64,000 nucleotides of DNA from Opitutales bacterium (GTDB lineage: Bacteria > Verrucomicrobiota > Verrucomicrobiia > Opitutales > PNEW01). The stretch is from contig CBDANS010000006.1 of the NCBI GenBank assembly GCA_965197745.1, positions 1,024,001-1,088,000 on the forward strand, given 5' to 3'. Positions 27,775-29,706 of this stretch are shown here, one piece after another. A program made the translations under genes and the position numbers. The notes beneath the pieces are model-generated. The model made no database searches. It saw only the letters and a list, made by a program, of their open reading frames with translations, and had not been told where the DNA came from. Each line of letters begins with the position of its first letter. Position 1 is the first letter of the stretch.

Positions 27775-27828
27775 TAATTTTAGGTAACTATCCCTTGACA
27801 ACATGTAAAATGTGTGTATATTAAAGGT

Positions 27829-28213
27829 ATGAATAAGATAAAAAATAATAAATTCGCGATTTCTAAATTTAATAAACAATACCCTGATGACAATACATGT
27901 CTTCACGAAATATTTTTAACTAAACACTCTAGCGATAAAGAATGTCATCACTGCCATAGACCATTCCGGTTTTATAAAGTAGCAAAACGCAAATGCTATG
28001 AATGTAGCTATTGCGGGTATCAGGTGCATCCTTTAGCCAATACGATCTTTCATAAATCATCGACACCGCTTAAAAATTGGTTCTTTGCTATCTATCTTTT
28101 CTCCGTTTCTAAAAATGGTGTATCAGCTAAGGAATTAGAAAGACAATTAGGTGTCACCTATAAGTGTGCTTACAGGATGGGAAAACAGATAAGGAAACTC
28201 TTTAATGAAAATA
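27829..28213 (+). pseudogene. IS1595 transposase, N-terminal part only
   Basis: Zn ribbon CHHC...CSYC, TIFHKS and KNGVSAKELERQLGVTYKCA; cut by the IS3 end at 28214, with no DDE domain found afterwards. Confidence 0.88.
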
Positions 28214-28242
28214 TGATCGGACCCCGTATTTCGTATCAAATT

Positions 28243-29245
28243 TTAAGTGAGAGAACTACCGGGTGTTAATGGTTTTAGGATTGATGTATATGAGAGATCT
28301 TGGCGCAGTGAGGGCGTAGCCCGAACGCGGCCAAGAGCGGAAAGGAATGTGACAAACTCTTGTGGGCTTTTAAAGCCTAATCGACTGTGGGGATGTTCAT
28401 TGTTATAGGTCTGACGCCATTGTTCTATTAGCACTTGCGCTTCAGCCACGCTGAGCAACACTTCACGGTTCAAACACTCATCGCGTAAGCGGTTGTGAAA
28501 CGACTCGATGAAACCGTTTTGCCAGGGACTGCCCGGATCGATATATATCGCCTTGATCTTTTTGTCGGACAACCACTGCTGCACCTGATGAGCAATGAAT
28601 GGCTTCGCATGTCGTCGCTTCGCTCCTCGGAACACTGCCGTTGTCACTGCGGATATAGCTAGGAACTCCCTCTTCATCGATGGTTTCGCTGAGTACCGAG
28701 AGAACATCGGTTGAGGTGAGCTGTCGAGCTACCCGGATGCGTAAACATTTACGCGTATATGTCTTCGCTTCGCTTGAGTGTCGTCGCTTTCAGCTCCTCG
28801 GTACATCGATCAAGGTCATCATCTTTAGCATACCGCCATTGTCTGTACGATCATGGACAAAGTCCCAGGACCAGACGTGATTGCGACCGGTTGCTTTAGT
28901 AGGGAGCCCAGTAGAGATCCCCTGACGGTGTCTACGCTTTTTTGGTGGCTTTACCTGTAAGCCCGAAGAACGTCGCACTGCCTGTACAAATTTCCTGCTT
29001 GCCGCCCAACCTTCTTTCACCAGCAAGGCACGAATGCGCCGGTAACCGTAACGGGGATGTTCCCAGGACAAGGTCAAAATCCGCTCGGCCAATTGCTGAG
29101 CCTTCTTACTGGCCTGCTTGGGTCGGTAGCTGTACGTTGACCAACTGAGGCTGAGATAAGCACAAGCCCTCTAAAACGAGCACAGCCCCTTCTCAGCCGC
29201 ATCTTTTACTGCTCGCTTCTTCTGCTTTGGGCTCACCATTTTTTT
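28243..29245 (-). pseudogene. IS3 orfB integrase, disrupted
   Basis: HPRYGYRR, WSWDFVHD, RSDNG and PWQNGFIESF motifs; in-frame TAG at 29171-29173 and two micro-insertions (28601-28632, 28761-28803). Confidence 0.88.
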
Positions 29246-29499
29246 GAGAGCGTTTCCTCCAACACCCGAAGCTTGAGCATTTGATCAGCGAGCATCTTCT
29301 TCAGCTCCGTATTCTCCTTTTCCAGCTCTTTAAATCGCTTCGCATCAGCCAGCTCCAAGTTGCCATACTTTTTGCCCCAGCGATAGAAGGTCTGTTCACT
29401 TAGGTTGTTGCCGTGGCAGACTTCCTGCACGGTTTTGCCCGTATCGGGCTGCCGCAGTATTGCTATGATCTGTTCTGTTGTATATCTTTTTCTTTTCAT
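29233..29499 (-). CDS. IS3 orfA (HTH)
   Basis: MKRKRYTTEQII...SEQTFYRW...ELEKENTELKKMLA...KKW. Confidence 0.88.
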   Translation of the reverse strand: MKRKRYTTEQIIAILRQPDTGKTVQEVCHGNNLSEQTFYRWGKKYGNLELADAKRFKELEKENTELKKMLADQMLKLRVLEETLSKKW

Positions 29500-29564
29500 T
29501 GAGGTTATCTGTTTATCCCGATAACCTCTCTCTGTTAATGATACCATTTTTGGGGGTCACTCCA

Positions 29565-29706
29565 TGTCTTTATCATTTATTGTAAAGAATATGTATGCAA
29601 ACAATGTCCCGATAACAGTTACCCCAAGAATAGCAACCACTCCTCTATAAAACCATTTGTCTTTCATAAATATTGGCCCTCCTTCATCATTTTTACTATC
29701 GTTCAT
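29565..29706 (-). pseudogene. Truncated small membrane-protein passenger gene
   Basis: MNDSKNDEGGPIFMKDKWFYRGVVAILGVTVIGTLFAYIFFTINDKD runs directly into the IS3 end. Confidence 0.5.

Follow-up and report, generated by a model that had tools for sequence, protein, structure and literature searches.

What are the two short, related stretches of DNA that split conserved codons of a transposase gene in the genome of an Opitutales bacterium, and how did they come to lie there? The window analyzed here, 64,000 nucleotides (nt) of contig CBDANS010000006.1 (assembly GCA_965197745.1, positions 1,024,001 to 1,088,000), carries on its minus strand an IS3-family insertion sequence (IS) whose transposase gene orfB is interrupted by an insert of 43 nt (s1, 28761..28803) and another of 32 nt (s2, 28601..28632). 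The source genome, G000, comprises 4.45 Mb in 7 contigs and is 92% complete. A first-pass annotation of this DNA had taken the two for copies of a tiny mobile element, and the insert sequences and minus-strand coordinates that it quoted are correct to the base. With moderate confidence we favor a reading in which the inserts are a selfish micro-element, built on small hairpins extended by G-A pairs (GA-hairpins), which would inactivate transposases and spread by short-patch copying among IS copies and by hitch-hiking with them.

Insert sites and their natural empty alleles

Insert s1 starts TACCGAGGAGC and ends GAAGAC, taking the place of the middle A of the Glu codon in the motif LID-E-YTR, and s2 starts TTCCGAGGAGC, ends GAAGCC and stands in for one base of the SDNGS-E-F Glu codon. 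On the minus strand they stand in the contexts ...ATCGATG, 43 nt, ATATACG... (28803-28761) and ...GGCAGTG, 32 nt, ATTCATT... (28632-28601), each placed between G and AT, and translation of the flanks (...MMTLID before and YTRKCL... after s1, ...SDNGS before and FIAHQVQQW... after s2) finds both motifs split by the inserts. The earlier prediction that putting an A in place of each insert restores its motif is borne out by natural insert-free copies, which at s1 read GATG-A-ATAT (GAA) in family A, to which the window copy belongs, and GATG-AG-TAC in a second subfamily, B, and at s2 read AGTG-AG-TTC, AGTG-AA-TTC or TCCG-AG-TTT. That orfB is interrupted by two inserts is likewise confirmed, with the correction that these are not its sole lesions, a TAG codon lying at 29171-29173 as well.

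Four further sites were found in relatives of this element. At s3, the Glu codon of RLRD-E-CLN (28477..28479, minus strand), the window copy is empty and reads GAG (natural empty allele GATG-AG-TGT), while a 36-nt variant occupies the site in other copies; at s4, the Gln codon of PW-Q-NG (C-A-AAAC, 28517..28521, minus strand; hyphens here and below mark the junctions), the window copy is again empty, natural empty alleles read TGGC-A-AAAC or TGGC-AG-AAC, and a 43-nt in-frame variant is found elsewhere. Site s5, in family B, holds a reverse-oriented module of 23 nt net exactly on the A8 frameshift window (empty allele, on the element strand, TTAC-AG-TTTT), and s6 is a 27-nt insert with one CGAGC-loop-GCGAG hairpin in the leucine-zipper part of orfA in G002, a genome of a sister genus (L173:555-1898, L260, L262). 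Among 34 full-length aligned copies of family A, s1 is occupied in 28/34, s2 in 32/34, s4 in 10/34 and s3 in 8/34, in mosaic combinations; subfamily B, whose C-terminal protein is about 56% identical to that of A, has s2 filled in 35 of 40 full-length aligned copies, s5 in 6/40, s1 in 2/40 and s4 in 1/40. Each site has its own distinct insert variant, fixed across three genomes.

A common anatomy and a one-base-replacing junction

The inserts have in common a 5' module, T[AT]CCGAG(GAG)C-loop-GCGAC(GAC)A; every variant begins T[AT]CCGAG and finishes in C, and lengths range over 23-45 nt. Written as CCGAGGA-[G/A]C-loop-G[C/T]-GACGACA, the module can be represented as a hairpin of 2 bp with a loop that varies between 3 and 6 nt and a stem continued by G-A/A-G mismatches and one G-C pair. 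Among 19 sequences taken from six genomic contexts and collected with a search pattern that permitted all four combinations, the second base pair (columns 10-19) is never unpaired: of the 18 distinct rows, 15 have G:C there and 3 have A:T, a covariation that suggests constraint on the element itself. The GA-flanked mini-hairpin drawn in the first-pass annotation is thus supported by variable loops together with a compensatory G:C to A:T change. The 3' part of the inserts holds a second small hairpin, of GCGAAGC or CGAGC-loop-GCGAG type, and GCGNAGC mini-hairpins are described as unusually stable in the form of DNA (PMC13037366). Folding restricted to Watson-Crick pairs, with RNA or DNA parameters, yields weak structures and is uninformative, as G-A pairs are not modeled. 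Hammerhead-like and 8-17-DNAzyme-like readings of the module were compared by eye with the consensus sequences and rejected, their core positions misfitting.

The junction follows a simple rule, in which an empty S-A(R)-W becomes a filled S-T...C-A-W with one base lost; put another way, the insert and a trailing A take the place of AR. The target is mostly G-A-AT, with CG-A-AT, GG-A-AT, C-A-AA, C-AG-T and A-A-AT as variants; the strict TGAAT target proposed at first is wrong, and S-A(R)-W fits better. No target duplication was seen at any aligned site in families A and B, and the two ends, T[AT]CC... and ...NC, show no inverted-repeat relationship. The same junction recurs at seven transposase-gene sites, in the T-loops of tRNA trailers and in a repeat of Pelagicoccus, and in both orientations, which upholds the earlier idea of a small non-autonomous element with a defined junction, one lost base and no target-site duplication.

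Several of these cases lie outside the IS3 families described above, those in tRNA trailers of G000 among them. A 36-nt relative is found in G123, a genome of another family in the order, where it lies reversed within a different rve-type transposase, between ...ECLDRMI and FGERSLRK..., with flanks that fit GAAG-A-ATAT on the element strand; judging by homology, a Phe codon is missing there, and together with s5 this makes two sites at which the element is reversed relative to the gene. Pelagicoccus mobilis has a short repeat in two copies, one carrying an s1-like 43-nt element and the other, empty, reading GG-AG-CATT. A tRNA-trailer copy in a Puniceicoccaceae genome (L070) reads TTCG-...-AATCC, with no base lost.

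Abundance of the inserts and their spread

The pattern of the shared core is met 2 times in the window against 0.00 expected (100 shuffles), and genome-wide CCGAGGARC-N2-7-GYGACGACA has 117 exact matches against 0 for a reversed-pattern control. Searches with natural inserts as queries (blastn-short) raise the count to about 140 inserts in this genome, namely 73 at s2, 33 at s1, 16 at s3, 14 at s4 and at least 4 at s5. Two sister-genus genomes of the same family, G001 and G002, have 18 and 69 pattern matches and carry the same inserts at matching sites; the other 28 of the 31 genomes searched in the order have none. Moreover, contigs of 4/4 public runs matched to this stretch carry inserts, which with the two sister-genus genomes settles the earlier concern that they might be artefacts of assembly. 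The s4 insert is seen in X17, X19 and X1 as contigs with 43 letters replacing base 28520, and s3 as one RNA-library contig with 37 extra letters at the site. When the C-terminal open frame is compared with database protein clusters, 26 of the 120 best contain the s2 peptide (in the downstream frame), these matches beginning within the s2 insert, and about 24 contain the s4 peptide, 15 residues in frame.

When a covariance model of the 5' module was run on 151 genomes sampled from the phylum, it found the module in 16/151, mostly in one family of the same order (10/15). In those genomes the elements read as about 55-65 nt and are mostly intergenic, the module being followed by a GACCGG...CCGGACC hairpin, and they are often nested in hairpins of T-arm-like sequence. 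Among the matches listed in a scan of a larger collection, most are chance matches in GC-rich coding DNA and about 12 loci are informative, the named informative records being Opitutales-type Verrucomicrobiota. A phage origin was considered and rejected: 2 of 41 viral-contig pattern matches have the extended element, and the rest look like chance in GC-rich DNA. A limited literature search, which is not proof of absence, found no account of such inserts in transposase genes.

Effect on the transposase gene

The inserts do not disturb the gene in one uniform way. Insert s1 (net +42 nt) stays in frame with orfB and carries a TGA, s2 (net +31 nt) shifts the frame, s3 (net +35 nt) shifts it and carries a TAG, s4 (net +42 nt) is in frame and open, s5 (net +23 nt) shifts the frame at the frameshift window itself, and s6 (net +27 nt) is in frame in orfA and carries a TGA. 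The corrections that a ribosome would need to make accordingly differ (0 with a stop at s1, +1 at s2, -1 at s3, 0 at s4), and a search for translational bypass or frameshift solutions across s1-s4 found no shared rule; pairs of codons suited to hopping exist only in s1 (AGC-TGA...AGC) and s2 (GCG...GCG or CCG...CCA), with none in s3 or s4. Nor can the Glu codon be regenerated by any simple deletion of the insert.

Contigs from the RNA library X17 have the inserts in place, at s1 (a 725-nt contig, 28686-29400), at s2 (28521-28702) and also at s3 and s4. No joints at inserts were seen in the RNA-library contigs of X17 and X19, with the limits that these are contigs and not reads, that rare forms drop out of them and that DNA carry-over is possible; stretches that have no RNA cover in X19 were treated as uninformative. 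The only apparent skips of an insert, in run X1, restore AG and A, and correspond to empty paralogues. Rfam gave 0 matches up to E=10 among 4227 families over window positions 28100-29700. Because two sites are reversed relative to their genes, RNA contigs keep the inserts and the frame breaks are inconsistent, these data argue for an insertion at the DNA level that disables the transposase, and not for an intron or a bypass element. Silencing or parasitism of transposons, as the first-pass annotation had suggested, fits these broken frames and also the filled and empty pairs of otherwise identical IS copies that we describe below.

Recent gain and exchange among IS copies

Inserts have been gained recently. 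In G002, four copies with s1 filled and two with s1 empty have the same sequence over about 1345 nt, the sole shared difference between the two groups being an A in place of the 43-nt insert; the three other differences, two of them substitutions and one a 1-nt deletion, are each private to a single copy. In a lineage of about 45 copies in the same genome, s2 is empty and reads GAG. A second case is found in G000, where four insert-free copies (lineage e) and three examined copies of lineage B2 (of nine) are identical over about 1263 nt but for the s2 insert with three adjacent bases (AG..T in one, CA..C in the other), a 3-column polymorphism in orfA and one private base. Neither GAA nor GAG can be recreated by deletion, which makes the empty state the ancestral one and the filled state derived.

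If lineage B1 is taken as the donor of s2 to B2, markers lying 14 nt upstream and 8 nt downstream did not move with the insert, and the copied patch was therefore barely longer than the insert itself; tracts exchanged by RecA are usually longer than this. Between lineages A1 and A2 the divergence at synonymous sites (dS) is 0.37, yet s1 and s2 (75 nt together) show 0-1 differences, and s2 is identical between subfamilies A and B. The inserts are also recombination hotspots. Chimeric IS3 copies of A and B, in both directions, are joined exactly at s2 (G000 C7:1673285-1674707; G001 L129 and L135), and in one database protein (P0055) the stretch from s2 to s4 is deleted. Insert uniformity, the chimeras and P0055 fit repeated sideways copying and recombination at the inserts.

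Subfamily B further shows a one-base frameshift polymorphism in orfA (TTT or -GA, alignment columns 221-223), present in insert-free and insert-bearing copies alike; all four combinations of insert status and orfA allele exist, which suggests that copies often exchange sequence. Lineage B1, which is abundant, has the frameshifted form of orfA.

Filled copies have transposed, with 4-bp flanking repeats at 6/22 A1 and A2 copies and at 2/9 B2 copies. For B2 an intact, insert-free helper exists in the same genome: copy e3 (L204) has orfA and orfB intact and ends identical to those of B2, and judging by these features could move B2 copies.

A proposed selfish micro-element and the alternatives

Taken together, these observations lead us to propose the following mechanism. 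A non-autonomous DNA insertion of 23-45 nt, with one or two GA-extended hairpins, would enter S-A(R)-W and replace one base, and in this bacterial family it would have colonized conserved codons of IS3-type transposase genes. Each insertion would shift the frame or add a stop and so disable the transposase, and the disabled IS copy could then hitch-hike, moved in trans by transposase from an intact copy. Very short-patch, homology-guided copying, homing-like in character, could in addition carry the insert into other IS copies, even those of other IS3 subfamilies, with the DNA that encodes conserved motifs favoring such sideways copying. As to the primary insertion, we can only guess at an enzyme that acts on folded single-stranded DNA.

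Several findings weigh against this proposal. Unfilled targets with GAA persist in some family-A copies (6 at s1, 23 at s4), and in this 92%-complete genome 0 of 34 family-A copies are insert-free, so no helper for family A was found. The only lesions of the A2 lineage (9 full-length copies) are its two inserts, and its copies have target duplications; in the 45-copy lineage of G002, s6 lies in orfA of every examined copy, some of which have orfB fully intact. The ratio of nonsynonymous to synonymous divergence (dN/dS) for orfB is 0.13-0.46 in 78 pairs among insert-bearing lineages, a mark of purifying selection, and conservation of the inserts far exceeds that of synonymous sites; both could mean that insert-bearing genes are still expressed. 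No candidate for the insertion enzyme was identified and no specific link to the Y1_Tnp family was found, and a search for reverse transcriptase gave no PF00078 match in the genome, which is 92% complete.

Somewhat doubtful in our view is a bolder version, in which these would be the smallest mobile insertions yet seen in bacteria, with a chemistry of their own that exchanges one nucleotide at G-A-AT targets, the T-loop GAAT of tRNA-like DNA included, and with a gene-drive-like homing among copies of IS3-type transposase genes, which they would switch off; they might then be hyperparasites of insertion sequences or silencers recruited by the host, and the long-unexplained rtT repeats of E. coli would be their relatives.

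Less probable still, we think, is that the inserts are passive fossils of a few ancient events of illegitimate recombination or template switching that brought a hairpin module from tRNA-trailer repeats into IS3 genes, and that, lacking any mobility of their own, they later spread by amplification of the IS and homologous recombination. Such a history would account for the fixed variant peculiar to each site in three genomes, for s1 being the insert nearest to the tRNA-trailer module, and for the A/B chimeras and the four-gamete patterns of insert status and orfA polymorphism, and the G...AT flanks common to the trailer source and the IS targets could be microhomologies. It sits poorly, however, with a junction rule shared by at least 9 independent sites, which span both orientations as well as different genomes and families of genes, and with filled and empty alleles that differ, in otherwise identical copies, by the insert alone or by the insert and 3 bases. 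The s2 patch, with B1 markers left behind on both sides, falls short of usual RecA tracts, and the hairpin covariation suggests a constraint at the level of the element.

We consider it unlikely that the inserts are intervening sequences compatible with expression, whether skipped by bypass or recoding, removed from RNA, or acting as attenuators that leave some transposase still made. The purifying dN/dS among insert-bearing lineages speaks for such a role, as does the proliferation of A2 in G000 and of the 45-copy lineage in G002 with an orfB free of lesions other than inserts. In the same direction, three of the inserts keep the frame (s1 and s6, each with a single TGA, and s4, which is open), the AGC-TGA of s1 with an in-frame AGC 21 nt on is reminiscent of take-off and landing codons, and the module contains a stretch resembling a Shine-Dalgarno sequence (AGGAG) as well as AGG, a rare codon. 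However, no consistent take-off and landing pair or frameshift remedy exists across s1-s4, s5 and the G123 insert are reversed relative to their genes, RNA-library contigs retain all four inserts with no joints, simple deletion does not restore the Glu codon, Rfam gives no match, and A1 has in addition a TAG, which is a normal stop here.

It is more improbable again that a host or domesticated system writes hairpin cassettes into conserved transposase codons against IS expansion. Seven sites in rve-type transposase genes at conserved motifs, inserts near fixation within IS subfamilies, and surviving empty alleles that are mostly AG and not AA at the target, as if immune, are what such a system might leave; no candidate machinery was found, though, related elements in family f29 are mostly intergenic, and survival bias explains the enrichment, insertions in host genes being lost and those in IS copies amplified. 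An artefact of assembly or sequencing, for which we found no supporting point, has practically no chance in view of some 140 copies and of the presence of inserts in three genomes, in contigs from four public runs and in 26 of the 120 database protein clusters that match best.

If the selfish micro-element that we favor is real, IS elements have parasites of their own, tiny cassettes that knock out transposases at conserved codons and pass in sweeps through families of IS, which would add a new layer to how bacterial genomes control their transposon load. The same process would account for genomes in which many IS copies look uniformly broken at identical places. The one-base-replacing G-A-AT junction points to a chemistry unlike that of known small bacterial repeats. 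In practical terms, gene callers fragment these transposases, and recognition of the inserts would improve IS annotation.

Comparison with known systems and the search for an enzyme

The first-pass annotation had suggested mobilization in trans by an enzyme of HUH type, such as the transposases (RAYTs) associated with repetitive extragenic palindromic (REP) sequences. Like the repeats of REP/REPIN-RAYT systems, the inserts are very short, hairpin-forming, non-coding, present in many copies and presumably recognized as folded single strands; unlike them, the inserts are intragenic and not intergenic and occur as single units and not as inverted pairs. The genome has a single Y1_Tnp gene (C6:163380-163706), and the 25-nt inverted repeats on either side of it (GGGTCAGACTGCGAAT...) are unrelated to the module; Y1_Tnp is present in 16/31 related genomes against 3/31 for the module. 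The RAYT link was rejected on these two grounds, unrelated flanks and lack of co-occurrence. As a separate observation, this IS200-like gene lies with a second open frame between these repeats (L152:878-1924; G000 C6:162757-163803), and some five short pairs of the same repeats, about 170 bp long, occur elsewhere, so that this looks like a separate small element family.

Miniature relatives of IS200/IS605 elements (palindrome-associated transposable elements, PATEs) insert cleanly 3' of their target, a fixed tetra- or pentanucleotide, and excise seamlessly. They resemble the inserts in having no terminal inverted repeats, no duplication, a short specific target and hairpins near the ends, and they differ in that the inserts cost one target base at most sites and are 3-5 times smaller. 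Seamless insertion is not what we see here: GATG-A-ATAT becomes GATG-[43 nt]-ATAT, and one base is lost likewise at s2-s5. From miniature inverted-repeat transposable elements (MITEs) the inserts are set apart by the lack of terminal inverted repeats and of target-site duplication. To our knowledge, one-base replacement is unlike the behavior of IS200/IS605, REP, MITE or integron systems.

With homing introns and inteins the inserts share a location in the most conserved codons, presence or absence in otherwise identical alleles, the co-conversion of few flanking bases, and spread between diverged host genes. Unlike these, the inserts have no detected capacity for ribozyme or protein splicing, lie reversed at two sites and are kept in RNA contigs, and we know of no homing endonuclease for them. 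Rickettsia palindromic elements, which are 100-150 bp long and kept in frame, are similar as small repeats tolerated in reading frames, s4 being likewise in frame as a 15-residue peptide, and dissimilar in that most inserts here break the frame. Bypass elements are 27-55 nt long, and those of the T4 gene 60 gap and of Magnusiomyces mitochondria ('byps') resemble the inserts in size, in their place within coding sequence, and in being structured and apparently mobile. The known cases are listed as T4 gene 60, Magnusiomyces mitochondria and a likely instance in a Streptomyces phage (PMC5009743).

Relatives in tRNA trailers and other repeats

It had been stated that the element appears only inside an IS, and this does not hold, as three copies of the module lie in tRNA trailers of the genome, two behind tRNA-Asn and one behind tRNA-Gln, each splitting a T-loop as TTCG-...-ATCC. 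The trailer units (L001:318-411 and 420-500, in G000 C6:355517-355700; L002:314-410, in G000 C5) terminate in the T-stem, acceptor and CCA of the upstream tRNA itself, and their 5' arm (GGCAGGATG against GGCTAGGATG) covaries with the tRNA. Of all the inserts, s1 is nearest to the trailer module.

These units recall the rtT RNA of E. coli, which lies downstream of tyrT/tyrV (RF00391). The E. coli units consist of GGATGAGAA, a T-arm split TTCGA-ATCC by an insert of about 80 nt ending ...GCGAAGCG..., and a tRNA 3' end with CCA. The trailer units are alike in the T-arm split, TTCG(A)-(A)ATCC, in an insert ending GCGAAGCG and in the preceding GGATGAGAA, and their loop ATGAGAA is common to the E. 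coli units (L153). Unlike rtT proper, however, they score 23.7 and 18 bits against RtT, under the threshold of 45, the IS inserts have no Rfam match, and the E. coli insert is long, at about 80 nt. We regard the apparent rtT connection as a lead and not as family membership. The mode of action of rtT is described as unknown (bioRxiv 10.1101/2024.07.17.603846), and the tRNA-trailer connection offers a testable idea on the origin of the E. coli units.

No integrase was apparent by eye among 16 open frames of at least 120 amino acids in the 16 kb around tRNA-Asn, where no family search was made. Also noticed was a distinct family of repeats (L003, G000 C4:3300-3800; L004, G000 C6:591400-591900), whose complete copies measure about 110 nt and have imperfect inverted ends TTGTCATTGCGAGGAGnnnnGCGACGAAGCAATCCAGG. 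Its end hairpin has a GA-extended core (CGAGGAGC-loop-GCGACGA) as in the IS inserts, and it has 59 pattern matches genome-wide, 3 of which are the tRNA-trailer modules.

The host element in the window

The copy in the window (28214..29564, minus strand) is a member of subfamily A1, 1351 nt long with both inserts, and its ends, TGGAGTGACC... and ...GGTCCGATCA, were defined from 13 aligned A1 copies; blastn finds 34 full-length family-A relatives in the genome. Judged by its coding sequence it is an IS3-family element, with a helix-turn-helix (HTH) orfA, an orfB with the rve core in the -1 frame, and an A7/A8 run at the end of orfA. As in IS3 elements, which also make target duplications of 3-4 bp, the ends of the copies here are TG...CA with imperfect inverted repeats (TGGAGTGACC...GATCA and TGGTCGTGACC...CGACCA). 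Perfect 4-bp flanking repeats, scored by eye, occur at 9/35 IS copies inspected and are absent at the others; by lineage they were seen at 3/13 A1, 3/9 A2, 2/9 B2 and 1/4 e copies.

The intact orfA (29233..29547, minus strand) matches HTH_Tnp_1 in Pfam, and its true start is likely the ATG of MKRKRY at about 29499. At its end lies a run of A7 (29239..29245, minus strand), read from the sequence, past which the -1 frame goes on as ...KKMVSPKQKK... and which we take to be the -1 slippery site into orfB expected of an IS3-type element. orfB (28243..29230, minus strand), coding for HTH_21 and an rve integrase core, is broken by the two inserts and one TAG; its pieces in the window match HTH_21 and rve_3, and the intact copy L204 matches HTH_21, rve and rve_3. 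The in-frame TAG, at codon 19 of orfB in our numbering (29171..29173, minus strand), is common to 14 A1 copies and several diverged lineages and is present in 20/34 family-A copies, in lineages that differ at dS 0.2-0.4; the remaining family-A lineages have TGG, CGG or CGA at this codon. Reassignment of TAG was considered and ruled out, since TAG terminates 175 of 1053 long open frames and is a normal stop in this genome.

Next to the IS3 copy, a 151-residue open frame with CxxC pairs (27814-28269, plus strand) abuts and overlaps its right end; it resembles the N-terminal zinc ribbon of a transposase from another family and may have been cut by the insertion of the IS3 element.

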